From the NCBI GenBank assembly GCA_041739995.1, contig JBGSMV010000047.1:128001-192000 (forward strand): a stretch of DNA of 64,000 nucleotides, written 5' to 3'. A program made the position numbers and the translations under genes. Shown in pieces: positions 2,476 through 63,473 of the stretch. Position 1 is the stretch's first letter; every line of letters starts with the position of its first letter. Source of the DNA: Bdellovibrionota bacterium (GTDB lineage: Bacteria > Bdellovibrionota_C > UBA2361 > JBGSMV01). The notes beneath the pieces were generated by a model. That model saw only the letters and a program-made list of their open reading frames with translations, did not search any database and was not told where the DNA came from.

Positions 2476-3483
2476 ATGAAGAGCAACGCACCTCAAACTA
2501 GTGAAAGGAAGACTAGTGAAAAAAAGCGACGTCTCCTTGCTCAGGCGAACCAGCGCGTGCTCCCCGCCAGAAAACAGCCTCGAGGATCCCCAAGCATGAG
2601 TGCTCGACCGCAGAAAAGGCCCTCTTCAACAAGTACTCTCTCGCTCACGGTTCGTCGGCAAGCTCCCCTTTCTCCTCGCGCACTGCACGATCCTGAATCC
2701 CTCGTAGAGGCACTCGCTCATCCACGATTTGAGGCGCACACCGAGATTGAAGTCCCCTACTTTTCTACCCTTGCCCATCTCAGCTCTATGCTGAAACTAC
2801 AAGAACTTCCCTCTCAACATATATTTCAAGCCTATATCCCTGAGAAAAACTTACACGAGATTCTGCTGCGCCTTGGAAGTGCAAGCGCACTCCTTCCCGC
2901 ACTCGAAGCCTCCATGCTTTCACGCGCGCGCCTGCGCCGCACGATTGACCTCTCTACGGATTCCACATCTTCCTCCCGCTATTATCTTCAATTGAAAACG
3001 GCCAAGGGTGGAGGCCTCTCCCGCACCGAGCTCGGAATAGAAATCCCTGCGGCACGGTTTTTTAAACTACTTCCCCTTGCGACCGCAGGAGCTGTGGAAA
3101 AACTGCGCTACATTCAACGCGGCGAAGTCCGAGCAATAAGGGGAAAGATGCACCTGGCCGAGGCGCATTTTGACGTTCTGTTGAACGCTGGCGCGAATAC
3201 AAAGCTTCAAATGAGCACGCGTCGAAGCGCGGAGCGCTCGCCCTTCTCCTTCATTGACGTAGAACTCCCTTCTGCTCAGCTTATTCCTCTGCTTGCAGAG
3301 CCACGACGACATTCCTTTGCATTTCTCTCCTGTGCCACTCCAGTATTGGACCATGAACGCTGGATTCAGAAAGTTACTGGCACGCGCGCAATTGCGCGAA
3401 ATGGCCTACACGATCGCACTTTTAAAAAGGCGTTGCGTCAGCTCACCGCAGGTCTTCCCGCTCCCTTCTCGCCCTCAAAGTAG
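2476..3483 (+). CDS. Divergent CYTH (triphosphate tunnel metalloenzyme)-like protein with basic N-terminal extension
   Basis: AAGGAGG at 2461-2467 precedes ATG 2476. Motif order EIE..QAY..RLRR..LQLK..RTELGIEI..EKLRY..HFD..IDVEL follows the CYTH pattern. Confidence 0.55.
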   Translation: MKSNAPQTSERKTSEKKRRLLAQANQRVLPARKQPRGSPSMSARPQKRPSSTSTLSLTVRRQAPLSPRALHDPESLVEALAHPRFEAHTEIEVPYFSTLAHLSSMLKLQELPSQHIFQAYIPEKNLHEILLRLGSASALLPALEASMLSRARLRRTIDLSTDSTSSSRYYLQLKTAKGGGLSRTELGIEIPAARFFKLLPLATAGAVEKLRYIQRGEVRAIRGKMHLAEAHFDVLLNAGANTKLQMSTRRSAERSPFSFIDVELPSAQLIPLLAEPRRHSFAFLSCATPVLDHERWIQKVTGTRAIARNGLHDRTFKKALRQLTAGLPAPFSPSK

Positions 3484-3540
3484 CATTTCCGTTAAGCATT
3501 GTTTTTGTGGGAAGCTTGCCAAGCGCAACCGCACCCATTT

Positions 3541-3713
3541 GAGCAGTTGAGCCAAAATAGAGGGGGCAAGTTTGCGCATCCGCTAATGTTTTGAGTATCA
3601 CTGATGTCACCCGTTTGGTGAAAGAGGTTCACGCGTAAACTTGACTGCCTCTATAGTAAAACTGGGCTCTTTTGAGGATCCTAAATGGCGCTACTGACCC
3701 ATTTAGGTTGAAG
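3541..3713 (+). repeat. Dispersed structured element, copy 1 (MITE-like or structured ncRNA)
   Basis: Core 3558-3653 is 79/96 identical, ungapped, to the reverse complement of 61487-61582. Segment 3671-3713 is 36/43 identical to the reverse complement of 61426-61468. Arms are TAGAGGGGGCAAGTTTGCGC and GCGTAAACTTGACTGCCTCTA. Confidence 0.85.
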
Positions 3714-3747
3714 CAACGCTTTGGGAAGACCTTAATAGGTAAGCAAA

Positions 3748-4719
3748 ATGGAATACCGCAGACTCGGCCGCTCGGGCATAAAAATTTCTGAACTCTCATT
3801 TGGTTCCTGGGTTACCTTTGATAAGCAAATAGATCTCGATGGCGCCATGCAGTGTATGCGCGTGGCCTACGAAAGCGGGGTTAATTTTTTTGATAATGCG
3901 GAAGCCTACGCCAGCGGTGAGTCTGAGCACATCATGGGCGAGGCACTAAAGAAGCTGGCCTGGCGCCGCGGCTCTTATCTGGTTTCTACCAAGCTTTTTT
4001 GGGGACTTCACAGCGGGCCAAACGAGAAGAACACTTTGAATCGAAAGTATTTACTTGAGGGCATTTCCGGGTCTCTTGAACGCTTACAGCTCGACTATGT
4101 TGATTTGATTTTCTGCCATCGACCAGACGCCAACACGCCGATTGAAGAAACCGTGTGGGCTATGCACGACATTATTGGAAGAGGACAAGCGCTCTACTGG
4201 GGCACTTCTGAGTGGAGCGCGGAGCAAATACGCGAAGCTTTTGAAGTCGCCAAGCGAATGAACCTGCGAGCTCCGGTGATGGAGCAACCCGAATACAATT
4301 TATTCAAGCGCGCACGGGTTGAATCAGAGTATGTTCCTCTCTTTGAACAGTACGGAATCGGCACAACAACCTGGAGCCCGCTCGCTTCTGGTTTATTGAC
4401 TGGTAAATATGCGAATGGCATTCCCGAAGGTTCTCGTTTCTCCCTTAAGGGCATGAGTTGGTTACAGGAACAGTACGCCTCGCCTGCGTATGCTACGGCC
4501 GTTCGCGATTTGGGTGCTATCGCTTCGTCTCTGGGGTGTTCTCTAGCCCAGCTTTCCATTGCGTGGTGTCTTAAAAATCCACACGTGAGCACGGTGATTC
4601 TTGGGGCAACCTCAGTGAAGCAGTTAACTGAGAATCTCAAGTCCCGCGACTGTGTGGCTCTTCTTAAGCCCGAAGTACTGGCGAAGATCCGTGCCATCCT
4701 TATGAAACACCCACTGTAA
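3748..4719 (+). CDS. Aldo/keto reductase (Kv-beta-like subfamily)
   Basis: [51 protein letters not shown]. Confidence 0.93.
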
Positions 4720-57014: not shown

Positions 57015-57500
57015 CTAAGCCGTAGCGCCAAGCTTCTCAGAGCCCAATGGTCTTACTGCACTGGACTTGGAATCGAGGCTCTTTGCTGCACCGGCGCCCA
57101 TTCCACTTGCTGTTGCGCCTGAGGCCATCGTCGATTTGCCTTCGAAGATTACCCCCTCTTCTATGCTGAGACTCGTGGTCGAAATATTTCCTACAATGCG
57201 AGCCGGACGTCGAAGCGAAAGTCTCTTGCTTGCAGAAATGTCGCCGTTGACTGTGCCCTTGACGAGAACTTCAGCGCCAGTGATGCGTGCATTGATAACA
57301 GCCGATTCTCCAATCGTCAGTCTATCTTGAGAAATGATTTCGCCTTCGACGTAACCGTCAAGTTCGACTGGTCCGGAGAAGGTTAGAGTTCCCACAACCT
57401 TGGATCCTTTTCCCAAAAAGGCTTCAACTTTATCCGCGGTAGCACCTCCAGCGGTTAAGCTGCTGCTCAAAGAATTAGTTCCCGAAGTTGAATTGGTCAT
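57015..57500 (-). CDS. Bactofilin (polymer-forming cytoskeletal protein)
   Basis: FLGKGSKVVGTLTF..ELDGYVEGEI..LTIGESA..GTVNGDI..IVGNI..LSIEEGVIFEG. Confidence 0.93.
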   Translation of the reverse strand: MTNSTSGTNSLSSSLTAGGATADKVEAFLGKGSKVVGTLTFSGPVELDGYVEGEIISQDRLTIGESAVINARITGAEVLVKGTVNGDISASKRLSLRRPARIVGNISTTSLSIEEGVIFEGKSTMASGATASGMGAGAAKSLDSKSSAVRPLGSEKLGATA

Positions 57501-57861: not shown

Positions 57862-59079
57862 CTAGGTCTGCTGAGGCGCACGCGAAAGCTGATCTACCAG
57901 ACGGTCTAGCTCTTCTTCTGAGAAGTACTCGATATCGATGCGCCCTCGACCTGACTTCGTATGCAAAATTGAAACCTTAGTCCCAAGCACTCTTCTTAGG
58001 CGGTCAGTTACTTCGGGAAATCGGAGCTGTGAGGTCTTTCCGTTGGAATTCGACAATGAGGCATTGTCTGTATCGAGTACCCCGCTTTTCCTTTTTCCGG
58101 TATCAAGCACGACGACCTTGGCTACGAGAGATTCAAGTGCGCGAACTGAGAGAGCATCTTTAATTACTCGGCGCGCGAGACTTATTTGTGCGGCAGGTTC
58201 ACGCAGAGAAAGAATAGCTTTTGCGTGTCCCATGCTCAGAGCGCCTTGTCGAAGTAGTGCGAGCACTTCTTCGGGCAGCTTCAGTAAGCGCATGAAGTTG
58301 GCGACACTGGCGCGGTCCTTCCCTACCCTTTCTGCGATTTCTGCCTGATTTAGGCCAAATTCTTGAGAAAGTCGTTGGTATGCGAAGGCATGTTCAACTG
58401 GATTCAGGTTTTCGCGCTGTAAGTTTTCAATCAACGCGAGCTCAAGAGTTTCTCTGTCAGAGAGTTCTCGAATGATGACCGGCACCTGTGTGAGTTCAGC
58501 TAACTGCGCAGCTCGCCAGCGACGCTCGCCGGCTACGATTTCATAGCGCACTGCTGAGGATGAAGTGCCCGTCGGGTCGGGGGTAACCGGACGCACTAAG
58601 ATCGGCTGGAGTAGCCCGACAGTTTTTAATGATGAAGCAAGCTCGGAGAGTTCTGCATCGCTGAAATCTTGGCGCGGCTGCTTGGGGTTCGGCGCCAGCA
58701 TCGAGGTGTTTAGGTATTTCACTCCGGACGAAGGGCTTGGTGAGTCGCCTGACTGAGATGATTCAACCGGCGGCGACTGCTTTGATGTCGCGGCGAACGT
58801 GGCTTGAATTTCTTGATTAGGGGCTCTCTCCGCTGCATTGCGGTTGGTCGTGTTACGTTCGAAAGCGGCTCGGTCGAAAGATATGACCTTGTTCTCTTCT
58901 TCCCCAGTTTGAGAATTCTGAATACTGACACTCGGATTTGCGGTCGGCTCAGCAACTATCGAATTAGACTCCGCTTCTTCTACGCTTGGCGTGATTGAGA
59001 CCGGCGGAGCCGAAATAAGAGCGCTTAAACCTCTCCCCAGGGCTGTCCTACCGCCAATTTTGAGTTTTCTATCTGTCAT
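57862..59079 (-). CDS. parB: Chromosome partitioning protein ParB
   Basis: LGRGLSALI, NPKQPR, GLLQPI, IVAGERRWRAA, LIENLQRENL, HTH. ATG 59079 preferred. Confidence 0.97.
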   Translation of the reverse strand: MTDRKLKIGGRTALGRGLSALISAPPVSITPSVEEAESNSIVAEPTANPSVSIQNSQTGEEENKVISFDRAAFERNTTNRNAAERAPNQEIQATFAATSKQSPPVESSQSGDSPSPSSGVKYLNTSMLAPNPKQPRQDFSDAELSELASSLKTVGLLQPILVRPVTPDPTGTSSSAVRYEIVAGERRWRAAQLAELTQVPVIIRELSDRETLELALIENLQRENLNPVEHAFAYQRLSQEFGLNQAEIAERVGKDRASVANFMRLLKLPEEVLALLRQGALSMGHAKAILSLREPAAQISLARRVIKDALSVRALESLVAKVVVLDTGKRKSGVLDTDNASLSNSNGKTSQLRFPEVTDRLRRVLGTKVSILHTKSGRGRIDIEYFSEEELDRLVDQLSRAPQQT

Positions 59080-59115
59080 AACGTTGTTCCACAAACAGTG
59101 TTCGATAGATTTAAA

Positions 59116-59131
59116 TGTTCCACGTGGAACA
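59116..59131. other. parS: parS site
   Basis: TGTTCCACGTGGAACA perfect palindrome (extends to 22 bp, 59113-59134) between parA and parB. Confidence 0.95.
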
Positions 59132-59192: not shown

Positions 59193-59993
59193 TTAGCTAT
59201 TCGCAGCAACAGATTTACTCTCAGAAGTTAGATTTAGTCGGATTACAAATTCATCAGTAAGACTTAAGTAGGCCTTCGCCCCGGCGGAGCTTGGATCGTA
59301 CAGACAGATTGGCTTCGAGTGACTTGGAGCTTCGGAGAGGCGAATGTTCCTTGGAATTCTAGTCTCCATCAAGAGAGGGCCAAAGTACTGCTTTGCCTCT
59401 GCTTCGACTTGTAGGGAAAGATTGGTGCGGGCATCGAACATAGTCAGAAAGACCCCCAGTAGCTCCAACTTTGGATTGAAGGTCTGTTGAACGAACTGAA
59501 TGGTCTTCATCAGGGCGGTCAGACCCTCAAGTGCGTAGTACTCGGACTGAAGCGGGACGAGCACTCTTTCTGCAGCGCCAAGAGCGTTAAGAGAGAGAAG
59601 TCCGGAAGAGGGAGGGCAGTCTATGAGGATTACCTGATACCGACGCTTCAAGAGCTCCAGCTGAGATTTCAATATGAGCTCTCGGCCTGCCACCTTTCCG
59701 AGCTCGATTTCAATGCCAACCAGGTCAGCGGAAGAGGGGGCTACGTCAAGCCCAGGAATCACTGACGGACGAATGATCTTCTCTAGGGAGGATTTGCCGA
59801 GGAACATATCGAAGAGGTCTTCGCCGGCTTCTCGAAGCTCAACTCCAAGGCCGCTTGTGGCGTTTCCTTGTGGGTCAAAGTCAATCAAGAGAGTTTTTAT
59901 GCCTTTTTGCCCCAGTTCGGCCCCGATGCTTACAGCAGAGGTCGTTTTTCCAACGCCTCCCTTTTGATTTGCGATTGCAATAGTAGTGGTCAC
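59193..59993 (-). CDS. parA: Chromosome partitioning ATPase ParA/Soj
   Basis: NQKGGVGKTT, DFDPQGNATSGLG, IDCPPS, EYYALEGL, IPRNIRLSEAPS. Confidence 0.97.
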   Translation of the reverse strand: MTTTIAIANQKGGVGKTTSAVSIGAELGQKGIKTLLIDFDPQGNATSGLGVELREAGEDLFDMFLGKSSLEKIIRPSVIPGLDVAPSSADLVGIEIELGKVAGRELILKSQLELLKRRYQVILIDCPPSSGLLSLNALGAAERVLVPLQSEYYALEGLTALMKTIQFVQQTFNPKLELLGVFLTMFDARTNLSLQVEAEAKQYFGPLLMETRIPRNIRLSEAPSHSKPICLYDPSSAGAKAYLSLTDEFVIRLNLTSESKSVAANS

Positions 59994-60037: not shown

Positions 60038-60053
60038 TGTTCCACGTGGAACA
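60038..60053. other. parS: parS site
   Basis: TGTTCCACGTGGAACA, 45 bp upstream of the parA start. Confidence 0.95.
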
Positions 60054-60221: not shown

Positions 60222-61406
60222 TCAGCTAGCTAGTCTGATTCTAGAATGTACCTCAGAGAAAGCCTTAACTGCAGAGATAATCGCTTGTTCATCAATAGCC
60301 TGAGTGACTATGAACCTAACTGAGCCACTTTGAGATAGCAGTCCGCGGTGTTGAATGGCGTCGACCAATATATTCTTCGAAAACAGCGCGTCAGCATACT
60401 CCATTGCGCGCCCAAACTTATCGCAAGGAATCGTGACCAGCGGGACTGATGGTGAAGAGGAGGATCTGCCTAAGACTTCCGATATCCCACGATCGAGTTT
60501 GAGTGCAGACTCTAAAAGTAACACGCGCTGGACGCTCATCACTTCGGCCAGATCGATAGCTTCGGTTAAAGCGGCGGCTTGGGCAGGGGCAGGGGAACAT
60601 TCCGTTCCAAACGCCCTGGAGCGCTGAGCTACTAGAGCCGTGAGATCAGAAGGGCCGCAAAGTGAGCCCAAAGAGACTCCCGCCAAACACTCTAAGCTAT
60701 TGATATTACATAGAATTTTGGGATTACGCATCGCGTGCGTTTCTTCAAGGAGGCCAGAGCCACGAAGCCCCAAACATCCAATTGCGAAGCTCTCATCCAC
60801 TACTAAATAGGCGTCGTAGCGGTCACACAACTCGAGTAGTGGGGGCAGCTCCAAAACAGAACCCCTCGATCCTGAGACTGACTCAACTACGATAATCTTT
60901 CTTCGTGACTGCGAGGCTCTCTGCAGATCAGCGGAAAGTCTGGAAAGATCGCCGCGTGGAAAAGCTTGGAACGGAGCGTTCACCAAGTAAGAAGCATCAG
61001 CGGCAGGAAGTAAAATATCCTCTTCTGCAAATACTGCGTCGCGCTCACCAACAAGAGAAGTGAGCAGAGAAAGCGCTGCTTGGCTCTTCGACGAAAAAAG
61101 CAGCGCGGCCTCTGTACCGAAAAATTTACTGAGGCGCATTTCAACCAGCAGGTGAGGGCGATAGGTGCCTGATGATGCGCGCGGTGTTGCGGTGCCAACA
61201 CCGTCAGATGCAATGGTCTCTTGTGCGCAGCGTTTGACGCGATCGTTGGAGGCAAGATTCAAATAGTCCCACGAGCTAAAGTCGATGAGCGTGCGACCTT
61301 TGAAATCAACACGACCACTCTTGCGGCGTGCGGCAACATGAAACTCGCGCTTGGGGAACGCACCCCAAAGCGACTCAAGCTCACGTTTAATATCATCTAA
61401 AATCAC
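60222..61406 (-). CDS. Alpha-oxoamine synthase family (BioF/Kbl/SPT) homologue lacking the PLP lysine
   Basis: DFSSWDYLNLA, GVGTATPR, H..E.RL.KF..EAALLF, IVVES, VVDESFAIG. Usual GTxSK position reads NSLEC. GTG 61406 preferred because ATG 61454 lies inside the repeat element hairpin. Confidence 0.8.
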   Translation of the reverse strand: MILDDIKRELESLWGAFPKREFHVAARRKSGRVDFKGRTLIDFSSWDYLNLASNDRVKRCAQETIASDGVGTATPRASSGTYRPHLLVEMRLSKFFGTEAALLFSSKSQAALSLLTSLVGERDAVFAEEDILLPAADASYLVNAPFQAFPRGDLSRLSADLQRASQSRRKIIVVESVSGSRGSVLELPPLLELCDRYDAYLVVDESFAIGCLGLRGSGLLEETHAMRNPKILCNINSLECLAGVSLGSLCGPSDLTALVAQRSRAFGTECSPAPAQAAALTEAIDLAEVMSVQRVLLLESALKLDRGISEVLGRSSSSPSVPLVTIPCDKFGRAMEYADALFSKNILVDAIQHRGLLSQSGSVRFIVTQAIDEQAIISAVKAFSEVHSRIRLAS

Positions 61407-61425
61407 CGGCTTTACCCGTTTGTAT

Positions 61426-61599
61426 CTTCGCCCTAGATGGGGCAGTAGCTCCATCTAGGGTCCTCAAAAATAGAGCAATATTATTATAGAGGCGGTCAAG
61501 TTTGCGCGTAAGCTGCCTTCGTCAAACGGGTGACTTCACTGATACTGAAGCCACTAGTGGCTGCGCAAACTTGCCCCCTCTACTAAATCTTAACTGCTC
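61426..61599 (-). repeat. Dispersed structured element, copy 2
   Basis: Reverse complement aligns to 3541-3713. Perfect 10-bp stem CCCTAGATGG / CCATCTAGGG at 61431-61460. Its 5' edge overlaps the prfB stop codon. Confidence 0.85.
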
Positions 61600-62712
61600 T
61601 TTGAGGGCTCACTCATCAGATACGATTCTATGAACGGGTCGATGTCTCCATCAAGCACGTTATTTACGGCTGAGGTCTCGAAGTCCGTTCTGAGATCCTT
61701 TACTAGTTGATAGGGCTGCATCACGTAAGAGCGAATCTGGCTACCAAAATCAATGGTTTTTCGCTCACCCTGTATAGATTTGACCTTATCAGCAGTTTCA
61801 CGCTGCTGAAGCTCGAACAGTTTTGACCTGAGCGTCTTCATCGCTCGGGCGCGGTTTTTGTGCTGAGAGCGTTCATTTTGGCAGGCCACCACAATGCCAG
61901 TCGGAATATGTGTAATGCGAACGGCGCTGTCCGTTTTGTTCACGTGCTGACCACCAGCACCAGAAGAACGATAGGTATCAGTTTTAAGATCCTTTTCATC
62001 AATCTCAACTTCAACATCATCGTCTAGTTCAGGCGTGACCATGATCGAAGCAAAGGAAGTGTGTCGTCTGGCATTGGAATCAAACGGGGAGATTCTCACT
62101 AAGCGATGCACTCCAATTTCAGAACGCAGATACCCGTATGCAAAATCTCCCTGAATGCTAAGCGCCGCACGCTTAATTCCGGCACCTTCTCCTGGTTGAT
62201 AGTCCAATTCCTCGAGCTCAAATCCTTTGCGCTCCGCCCAGCGGATGTACATGCGCAGCAACATTTCTGCCCAGTCTTGAGCCTCGGTGCCACCAGACCC
62301 GGCATTTATTTCTATGATGGCATGTGATCGATCGAATTCGCCTCGCATCTTGCGAAGGAATTCATGACGTTCGATTTCTTGCGCGAGTTTTTTGGCAGAC
62401 GCAAAGGCTTCGCGCAGCATGTCTTCGTCTTTGGATTCACGCCCAAGTTCTAGAGCAGCAACTGAGTCGCCATACAGTTCTTCGAGACGCAGAAACAAAG
62501 AGATGACCGCTTGAGCTTCCGAGCGCTCTTTCATTATTAGAGCGGCTTTTTCTGAGTTGTTCCAGAGGTCAGACTGTTGAGAGAGGGCTTCTATTTCGGC
62601 AATGCGGTGTTCTTTTGAAGCGACGTCAAAGAAACCCCCTCAGGGCATCCACTCGCCCTCGAAGCTCTTCAAGTTGATTTCGGCATTCATTCGGATCAAG
62701 TAGGTCGACCAT
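61590..62712 (-). CDS. prfB: Peptide chain release factor 2, expressed via programmed +1 frameshift
   Basis: ORF0 from ATG 62712 reads MVDLLDPNECRNQLEELRGRVDALRGFL, ending AGG GGG TTT CTT TGA C. The +1 frame continues DVASKEHR.. into the ORF with SPF and GGQ motifs. Confidence 0.96.
62625..62640 (-). promoter_or_regulatory. prfB +1 frameshift cassette (internal SD AGGGGG plus CTT TGA C)
   Basis: Minus strand AGGGGGTTTCTTTGAC matches the established RF2 autoregulatory site. Confidence 0.95.
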
Positions 62713-62768: not shown

Positions 62769-63473
62769 CTATTTGCGTTTACTGATGAGGCTGGACGAAA
62801 GCTCTCTATGTTTAGCGAATAGGCGTCGCTCAATGCGACGCATGAGTTCAGCGTCTTTGCGGTCTACTCGCTCGTGGTCGTATCCGAGTAAATGCAGCAC
62901 CCCATGCAGCAACAGCCGGATCAGCTCCTCTCCAAGGCTCCAACCATATCGTCGGCTCTGAACTGCTGCGGTATCCAAGGACACCACAATGTCCCCAAGA
63001 GAGTACTGCACTTCATCAATCGCCAGCTCTCCGTAGTCCTTTGGGGTGACGGTTGGAAAGGAGAGCACGTCGGTAGGCTTGTCCTTCTTGCGGTAGGAAC
63101 GGTTCAGTTCGTGAATCTTTGGATCGCCCACAAAGGAGAGTGAAATGATGCGTACCGACTTAGGCGGAAATGGCAGCATGCCGCGCGTTCGAATGCCGCG
63201 TGGTGCAGGGTGCTCAAGGGAGTAGAGCGCTGACTGAATAAGGCGCCGCAAGACTGAGCGGTCGATTGGCGGTGTTTTTCGCTCACAAACGATGTCGACA
63301 ACCCACGGCGACTTTGGAGTCGCTGGTGGGCGCCGCGCTACGGGCGCTTTCGTTGCCTTTGATGATCTGCGGCTGAATAACTTAGAGCTGCGCCTGAGCT
63401 TTCGCTTTGTGGATAGAGGGGCGGCTCCTTTTCCCTTTCGCCTACGATGGACCGCCCGAGCTGCCTTTGCCAT
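62769..63473 (-). CDS. ybeY: rRNA maturation RNase YbeY with long basic N-terminal extension
   Basis: LNRSYRKKDKPTDVLSFP, LGDIVVS, HGVLHLLGYDH. Confidence 0.93.
   Translation of the reverse strand: MAKAARAVHRRRKGKGAAPLSTKRKLRRSSKLFSRRSSKATKAPVARRPPATPKSPWVVDIVCERKTPPIDRSVLRRLIQSALYSLEHPAPRGIRTRGMLPFPPKSVRIISLSFVGDPKIHELNRSYRKKDKPTDVLSFPTVTPKDYGELAIDEVQYSLGDIVVSLDTAAVQSRRYGWSLGEELIRLLLHGVLHLLGYDHERVDRKDAELMRRIERRLFAKHRELSSSLISKRK

Follow-up and report, generated by a model that had tools for sequence, protein, structure and literature searches.

Can the scaffold of a pyridoxal 5′-phosphate (PLP) enzyme be kept in bacteria once the residues that serve its cofactor are gone, and what would such a protein then do? 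The question is raised by a gene in a 64,000-nt stretch of DNA from a Bdellovibrionota bacterium (contig JBGSMV010000047.1 of assembly GCA_041739995.1, positions 128,001 to 192,000 of the forward strand; hereafter the window), whose product resembles the alpha-oxoamine synthases (AOS). Active AOS enzymes, that is BioF, Kbl, 5-aminolevulinate synthase (ALAS) and bacterial serine palmitoyltransferase (SPT), require the Schiff-base lysine. A preliminary description of the window had proposed that the gene encodes a pseudoenzyme devoid of this residue, with motifs resembling those of the eukaryotic SPT subunit LCB1 (SPTLC1). We use our own label, AOSL, for this alpha-oxoamine-synthase-like family. 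Our analysis leads us to consider it fairly probable that AOSL derives from BioF, has become non-catalytic and PLP-free, and acts as a homodimer in which the pocket at the interface is remodelled. Its activity is probably not the catalysis of its ancestor.

The window gene and its cofactor site

As first described, the gene is a full-length, uninterrupted open reading frame (ORF) of AOS fold (60222-61454, minus strand, 410 aa). Pfam PF00155 matched its product with 53.8 bits (cut-off 19.7), while the NCBIfam models for bioF (TIGR00858, 167.7 bits) and Kbl (NF005394, 163.1 bits) remained far under their cut-offs of 426.45 and 460, respectively. The top solved-structure match was Kbl 7bxp (E-value 1.3e-30), and matches in the ESM Atlas were merely generic AOS and aminotransferase clusters. 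By these comparisons the window protein is homologous, far above chance, to the AOS, which are fold-type I PLP enzymes. Two starts are possible. The GTG at 61406, where the preliminary description had placed the end of the gene, is a possible internal start giving a product of 394 aa, to which the length of the orthologues (about 385-397 aa) is near. The intact ORF, for its part, runs on to an ATG at 61454 with GAGGA located 6 nt 5′ of it. Residue numbers used here count from ATG 61454; subtracting 16 gives the 394-aa numbering of our orthologue alignment (A1) and of the complex model.

At the positions of the AOS motifs HAS(I), D(D/E)AH and T(L/F)SK, the window protein had been read as ILLPAAD, DESF and NSLEC, respectively. 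Residue alignments agreed with each of these readings: Leu148 falls on the His of NHAS(I), the Asp of the second motif is kept as Asp220 and its His is replaced by Phe223, and the lysine is replaced by Cys256. No correctly placed lysine was found in the alignment of the window protein.

Residue pattern across the AOSL family

A residue census comparing 229 pooled AOSL sequences with 25 enzymes gave the same picture for the whole family. The Schiff-base lysine was present in 25/25 enzymes vs 1/229 AOSL, as was the pair of PLP-binding histidines taken together (25/25 vs 1/229). The Asp that pairs with the pyridine nitrogen was found in all sequences of both sets (25/25 and 229/229) and the Arg that binds the substrate carboxylate in 25/25 enzymes and 218/229 AOSL. 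At other columns a different residue has taken over. The phosphate-loop Gly (23/25 enzymes) is R or K in 216/229 AOSL, the Asn of the (S)N(N/D)YLG motif (24/25 enzymes) is W in 198/229, and the Ser/Thr column after the lysine (S or T in 23/25 enzymes) is E or D in 228/229. A Gln two positions past the loop Gly is shared by 170 of the 173 non-redundant AOSL members (98%). In addition, the phosphate-loop Asn is changed to V, I or L and the Thr before the lysine to S, D or G. The roles assigned here to the aligned AOSL columns, namely those of a phosphate-binding loop (S-G-aromatic..N) and of the Thr before the lysine, are our assumption, and we likewise take the Ser/Thr column at Glu285 to reach the PLP phosphate of the other subunit in AOS enzymes.

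Variability within the AOSL site is among the highest at the Lys and His columns. As judged from the alignment, this pattern is not one of random decay, since the catalytic residues drift, some anchors stay and new residues have been fixed. Two proteins depart from it. P0122, from the representative library, keeps both His and has Phe at the Lys column, and P0229 has the Lys and neither His; these two may be intermediates or reversions.

Family size, distribution and selection

A word-indexed search returned just two full-length relatives above 30% identity, both without the lysine, and whole-genome searches of relatives showed that many genomes of this order have an orthologue in synteny, with 28-46% identity. 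Family size is given here from the A1 profile, made of 21 AOSL orthologues and searched against 1.84 billion cluster representatives. Among its best 150 matches, 125 lacked the lysine at the aligned column (one ends before this column) and 25 carried it. Most of these 25 have the full H/D/D/H/K set, as found in four long multi-domain proteins (P0248, P0256, P0257 and P0260); the exceptions were P0186 (1741 aa) and P0229, with the Lys but neither His. Counted in this way, the family comprises at least 125 clusters at 50% identity. No cultured-species name occurred among the 72 matches of a genus-g11 profile search.

Distribution was examined in 124 Bdellovibrionota genomes, 91 from the order of the window and 33 from other orders, scoring AOSL as present when the A1 profile reached about 300 bits or more. 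AOSL was found in 50/91 genomes of the order and in 0/33 of the others, and was single-copy and free of internal stops in 50/50. The figure of 50 genomes is a lower bound because divergent copies fall under this threshold. Three genus-g6 genomes carry a divergent AOSL of 223-229 bits with the signature W/R/Q/D/D/F/E/R and a Pro at the Lys column.

Ratios of nonsynonymous to synonymous substitution rates (dN/dS) were calculated by the Nei-Gojobori method on five pairs with dS below 1.2, among ten genomes of one genus. They were 0.038-0.084 for AOSL, 0.014-0.025 for the upstream gene prfB and 0.016-0.052 for the downstream gene parA. Purifying selection on AOSL is thus strong, although its neighbours are constrained two to five times more tightly. 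These comparisons of conservation and dN/dS, suggested in the preliminary description, uphold its claim of a pseudoenzyme retained among core genes, as do the spread over at least 125 clusters and the conserved synteny presented below; the ratios are 0.04-0.08 in round figures and ORFs were intact in 50/50. The opposite case, in which close orthologues would be intact BioF and the window copy would be under relaxed selection, does not hold: the orthologues are Lys-less and dN/dS is low.

Predicted fold and homodimer

The AlphaFold2 model of AOSL built with A1 reached a predicted local distance difference test score (pLDDT) of 93.3 and a predicted template modelling score of 0.89. In Foldseek comparisons its template modelling (TM) score was 0.90 to both Kbl and BioF, and 0.82 to human SPTLC1 with a root mean square deviation of 6.2. 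Modelled as a homodimer, the protein scored 0.92, 0.92 and 0.91, vs 0.01 for the best control. The mark applied is reached by 20/30 proteins solved as same-chain pairs and by 1/23 proteins solved as single chains. The runs agreed in at least 97% of contacts, with a partner pLDDT of 91. The modelled interface (residues 44-47, 105-109, 132, 137, 237, 239-240 and 268-273 in the 394-aa numbering) takes in the signature W, D, K, Q and E as well as the former Lys and His positions. These models suggest that AOSL forms the canonical AOS homodimer, although the pass may show likeness only because AOS homodimers are already among the solved structures.

Relation to BioF and Kbl

A tree computed quickly with IQ-TREE from 72 rows (39 AOSL, 22 BioF-type, 7 Kbl and 4 ALAS as outgroup, with no SPT, LCB1 or LCB2 rows) placed AOSL as one clade with a Shimodaira-Hasegawa-like approximate likelihood ratio test (SH-aLRT) value of 100 and a stem of 1.04 changes per site. 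AOSL grouped with the BioF-type rows against Kbl with a support of 89, and Kbl formed a separate clade (SH-aLRT 100). The phylogeny proposed in the preliminary description was obtained for BioF and Kbl, the comparison with SPT and LCB proteins being made through scores against the Protein Data Bank (PDB). The 19 stand-alone Lys-bearing proteins nearest to the AOSL profile all had bioF as best NCBIfam model, 16 of them above its cut-off, and bioF was also the top NCBIfam model of three further family members scanned (P0121, P0122 and P0229).

BioF is the top NCBIfam model for the window protein too and, by profile and tree, the nearest Lys-bearing relative. It shares its length and fold with AOSL and, going by the model, may share its dimer, and AOSL residues 205-300 are closest to solved BioF structures. 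It differs in that AOSL scores 168 bits where the cut-off is 426 and has the Lys, both His and the phosphate loop replaced. Kbl provides the best solved-structure match (7bxp, TM 0.90) and is the sole other AOS of the window's genome (G000), but in this Kbl the H/D/D/H/K set is complete, and its identity to AOSL is only 26%. Taken together, these comparisons give moderate support to a BioF ancestry of AOSL.

AOSL is nevertheless not the BioF of the cell, as judged from gene content. In G000, bioB was matched with 42.6 bits at best (cut-off 225) and bioA with 256 bits at best (cut-off 405), and no match was found for bioD; conversely, a related genome (G019) has a genuine BioF with bioD and bioA alongside AOSL. 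The absence of bioB, bioD and bioA above cut-off in a genome with AOSL also sets AOSL apart from BioF.

A proposed remodelled pocket without cofactor

How could such a protein work? We propose that AOSL keeps the whole AOS fold and would keep the canonical homodimer. Nearly all PLP-holding residues are replaced, and the columns of the Schiff-base Lys and of both His are no longer constrained. At the phosphate site, a basic side chain (R/K123) and one or two acidic ones (S/D253 and E285′, the prime denoting the other subunit) have been acquired, and the strongly conserved new interface residues would plug or re-purpose the former active site. These residues would either fill it with salt bridges, stabilising the dimer without cofactor, or create a site for another ligand; Arg380 and Asp220, inherited from substrate binding, are retained. 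On the residue pattern, AOSL is expected to bind no PLP. Expressed from the prfB locus, beside the centromere, it would serve in binding, regulation or scaffolding and would not be a condensing enzyme.

Several observations weigh against this proposal. AOSL evolves two to five times faster than its neighbours, and identity to the window copy is 28-46% for AOSL vs 57-79% for prfB and parA. AOSL is dispensable in some lineages, because it was lost in one genome and shortened in another. In G004, which belongs to the window's own family, prfB is followed by 770 bp and then parA. In G012 (locus L062, G012:C3, 1419-2405, plus strand), a 329-aa derivative located directly after prfB has kept the N-terminal signature (K, Q, P, D) and has lost the central region from DES to the Lys column; it may be a further-reduced form or decaying. 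The contact between R/K123 and E285′, and with it the idea of a salt bridge or plug, would follow from assumed residue roles and from the modelled interface list. The near-invariance of Asp220 and Arg380, residues by which enzymes bind cofactor and substrate, could mean that some ligand chemistry survives. As for the BioF origin, the PDB scores of the family profile are near-equal (BioF/Kbl 227, SPT 225 and Kbl 222 bits), and the BioF rows of the tree, which has no SPT or LCB rows, were picked among Lys-bearing proteins for their top scores with the AOSL profile.

The conserved pocket could alternatively catalyse a different reaction, either free of PLP or with a non-covalent B6 vitamer or another cofactor. 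The polar residues Q125 (98% of 173), E285, R/K123, D220, D153 and R380 are conserved beyond apparent structural need and dN/dS is low, in favour of this reading. However, the Lys and His columns, the most variable of the site, offer no conserved candidate for a nucleophile or a base, and two acidic residues lie in the phosphate site. Moreover, no metabolic-pathway gene is a constant neighbour, the downstream gene being parA, cysE, a PrsW-type gene or unknown. We regard such a neo-enzyme as unlikely, and return to the non-catalytic homodimer below.

Comparison with LCB1 and the question of a partner

According to the available part of PMC6148460, SPT1 (LCB1) has no Schiff-base lysine and works only together with SPT2; it also has no analogues of His159, His234, Asp231 and Arg390 of SpSPT and is membrane-anchored. 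With this precedent, AOSL could pair, as an inactive subunit, with a Lys-bearing AOS, here Kbl, and would complete or regulate the single active site of this heterodimer, as SPTLC1 does for SPTLC2. The preliminary description had put forward both LCB1-like motifs and a non-catalytic half of a heteromeric SPT-like enzyme. The first claim stands locally. Among solved structures, residues 55-125 match human SPTLC1 best (43 bits; Sphingobacterium SPT reaches 34 and Kbl 30), with the motifs N.RVK and GVGT..PR in common, and SPTLC1 has an aromatic residue where enzymes have the Asn and AOSL its Trp. Over the whole protein, however, Kbl is preferred to SPTLC1 among solved structures (110 vs 88 bits), and the family profile likewise prefers bacterial enzymes to LCB1 in the PDB (227 vs 175 and 152 bits).

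The second claim found no support. The SPT model NF047599 matched 0/124 genomes of the phylum sample at an E-value of 1e-110 or below, while control matches were obtained in Caulobacter and Bacteroides. Searching the window's genome for Lys-retaining AOS paralogues, as had been suggested, gave a bona fide Kbl alone (653 bits on TIGR01822, cut-off 493). An enzyme-type AOS does accompany AOSL in 46/50 genomes, but it is not a constant one: it is Kbl in G000, G001, G011 and G033, ALAS in G005 and G021, and BioF in G019, each gene lying in its own housekeeping context. No other AOS was detected at an E-value of 1e-30 or below in the remaining four of the 50 genomes (G025, G036, G084 and G100, which are 87, 90, 96 and 87% complete, respectively), and genomes without AOSL have the same AOS enzymes. 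Furthermore, the acidic residue present in 228/229 AOSL, at a position which we take to be that of trans phosphate binding, would repel the PLP phosphate of a partner.

AOSL thus resembles LCB1 by its AOS fold, by the lack of the Schiff-base Lys and of both PLP His, by its retention under selection and by the N-terminal motifs. It differs in keeping the Asp and the Arg which, in the available part of PMC6148460, are absent from SPT1, in having no membrane segment and in having no SPT2-like partner. No hydrophobic segment was found in AOSL, where the 19-residue Kyte-Doolittle mean was at most 1.33 (0.08 in the N-terminal region). Overall, we judge a heterodimer of the LCB1 type less probable than the neo-enzyme. 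AOSL would rather have an origin independent of LCB1, inside the bacterial BioF-type enzymes, as suggested by a tree without LCB rows, and appears from these comparisons to have converged with LCB1 in losing the cofactor site.

Two observations concern the co-resident enzymes. At the Kbl locus of the window's genome (L001, G000:C41), genes 1471-2718 and 2702-3880, both on the minus strand, overlap. The 392-aa ORF that overlaps Kbl has an N-terminal GxxGxxG and matched no NCBIfam model at an E-value of 1e-30 or below; we presume that it may be a threonine dehydrogenase of the short-chain dehydrogenase/reductase type. The ORFs next to ALAS in sister genomes were read, on our assumption, as hemB and hemH.

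Gene neighbourhood

The window gene lies between prfB and parA, as had been described (Table 1). In 35 of 40 AOSL loci, the gene is preceded by prfB in the same orientation. Of the other five, two are cut by a contig end (L006 and L023) and three have at least 1.9 kb of upstream sequence lacking prfB (L021, L054 and L055). The gene parA is downstream on the same strand in 30/40; where it is not, the next gene encodes a serine acetyltransferase (cysE) in three loci and a PrsW-type protease in one, and Pfam gave no match for the next downstream gene in the genus-g5 loci tested. The usual order is prfB-AOSL-parA-parB, beside the parS centromere, with prfB as the constant neighbour of AOSL, often at very short spacing. 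AOSL is probably an operon partner of prfB. Scans of the minus strand between the two genes were not informative, either for promoters (3 promoter-like sites vs 2.8 expected) or for terminators (no terminator-like site).

Table 1. Coordinates of AOSL, of its cofactor-site residues and of neighbouring features in the window
Feature	Position	Strand	Remark
AOSL gene	60222..61454	-	410 aa from ATG, stop codon counted in; without PLP-binding residues
Alternative GTG start (Val17)	61406	-	internal to the 410-aa ORF; product 394 aa
Trp62-Asp63	61266..61271	-	Trp for Asn of the (S)N(N/D)YLG motif
Lys123-Ser124-Gln125	61080..61088	-	(R/K)-x-Q signature in place of Gly-aromatic phosphate loop; in modelled interface
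Leu148	61011..61013	-	aligned with the His of NHAS that stacks on PLP; H in 10/229
Asp220	60795..60797	-	kept Asp, pairs with pyridine N in enzymes
Phe223	60786..60788	-	column of the O3′-binding His of DExH
Cys256	60687..60689	-	column of the Schiff-base Lys; variable in family
Glu285	60600..60602	-	at the Ser/Thr column; in modelled interface
Arg380	60315..60317	-	kept Arg, binds substrate carboxylate in enzymes
prfB (release factor 2)	61590..62712	-	conserved upstream neighbour of AOSL
prfB programmed +1 frameshift site CTTTGAC (CTT TGA C)	62625-62631	-	preceded by AGGGGG
parA	59193..59993	-	usual downstream neighbour of AOSL
parS-like perfect palindrome TGTTCCACGTGGAACA	60038..60053	.	AOSL-parA spacer
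Second parS-like perfect palindrome TGTTCCACGTGGAACA	59116..59131	.	parA-parB spacer

The listed 314-aa ORF of prfB is the downstream frame only, because of the +1 frameshift site; the gene starts at ATG 62712. The palindrome TGTTCCACGTGGAACA clusters in the AOSL-parA and parA-parB spacers in 31/40 related loci. In L006, L008, L009 and L057 the AOSL ORF itself contains the palindrome, at its 3′ end, and five copies are present in the prfB-parA spacer of G004. A candidate AOSL remnant in this latter spacer, seen as weak tblastn matches on the opposite strand (best E-value 5.7e-4 in a tiny database), was rejected.

Further along the window, the ParB ORF (57862-59094, minus strand, 410 aa as listed, with a putative start) begins with about 120 Ser/Pro/Gln-rich low-complexity residues before its conserved part. 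A bactofilin gene (57015-57500, minus strand; PF04519, 91.7 bits) is located just downstream of parB and is followed by genes for ATP-synthase b′, b and delta. In Bdellovibrio bacteriovorus, the available part of PMC10547168 gives the parAB context as rRNA methyltransferase, unknown protein, parA, parB and bactofilin; the arrangement of its bactofilin gene bd3904 matches that of the window, whereas the genes upstream of parA, as given for strain HD100, differ. On the other side of prfB, a YbeY endoribonuclease ORF (62769-63473, minus strand, 234 aa) has its Pfam domain over residues 110-220, and its first ~100 residues form a Lys/Arg/Ser-rich extension.

This context raises the possibility that AOSL works as an adaptor, with release factor 2 or the segregation machinery of ParABS and bactofilin as its target, for which the conserved order prfB-AOSL-parA-parB-bactofilin, the parS-like sites directly downstream in 31/40 loci and the short prfB-AOSL spacing in many of them could argue. 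However, gene order among housekeeping genes need not mean binding, parA is not downstream in 10/40 loci though prfB stays, and G004 has prfB-parA-parB-bactofilin without AOSL. We give this reading less weight still than the heterodimer. Finally, it is very improbable that AOSL is a functionless, decaying BioF paralogue: the catalytic residues are all gone, evolution is faster than in the neighbours and one loss and one shortening are seen, but the ORFs are intact and single-copy in 50/50 genomes with dN/dS of 0.038-0.084, family-specific residues have been newly fixed and the fold is predicted with confidence.

A possible sensor and implications for the family

The non-catalytic homodimer can be carried one step further. 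AOSL might be a cofactor-free sensor, whose rebuilt inter-subunit pocket (W62, R/K123, Q125, D220, E285′ and R380) would bind a small molecule not used by the ancestral enzyme (an amino acid or an acyl-thioester, for instance) and regulate a core process tied to prfB or the centromere. We rate this idea above the alternatives discussed in the preceding sections, and still consider it doubtful. If true, it would mean that a bacterial enzyme scaffold was turned into a sensor independently of eukaryotic LCB1. A fold-type I PLP-enzyme scaffold serving a non-metabolic use is known from the MocR/GabR regulators; as presented in the available part of PMC5320631, those bind PLP and carry a GntR DNA-binding domain, while AOSL has neither an extra domain nor the PLP ligands.

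Dead AOS subunits are already known from eukaryotic serine palmitoyltransferase, and our full-text searches of the literature yielded no description of Lys-less AOS forming a family of their own in bacteria. In source databases, AOSL members bear the names ‘8-amino-7-oxononanoate synthase’, ‘7-keto-8-aminopelargonate synthetase-like enzyme’ or ‘PLP-dependent enzyme’. Since members are thus labelled as enzymes, metabolic reconstructions would wrongly credit these genomes with BioF. AOSL, which more than one in two genomes sampled from a single Bdellovibrionota order contain, offers a natural experiment on the re-use of a PLP scaffold after cofactor loss, in which anchors are kept, catalytic positions drift and new interface residues become fixed.

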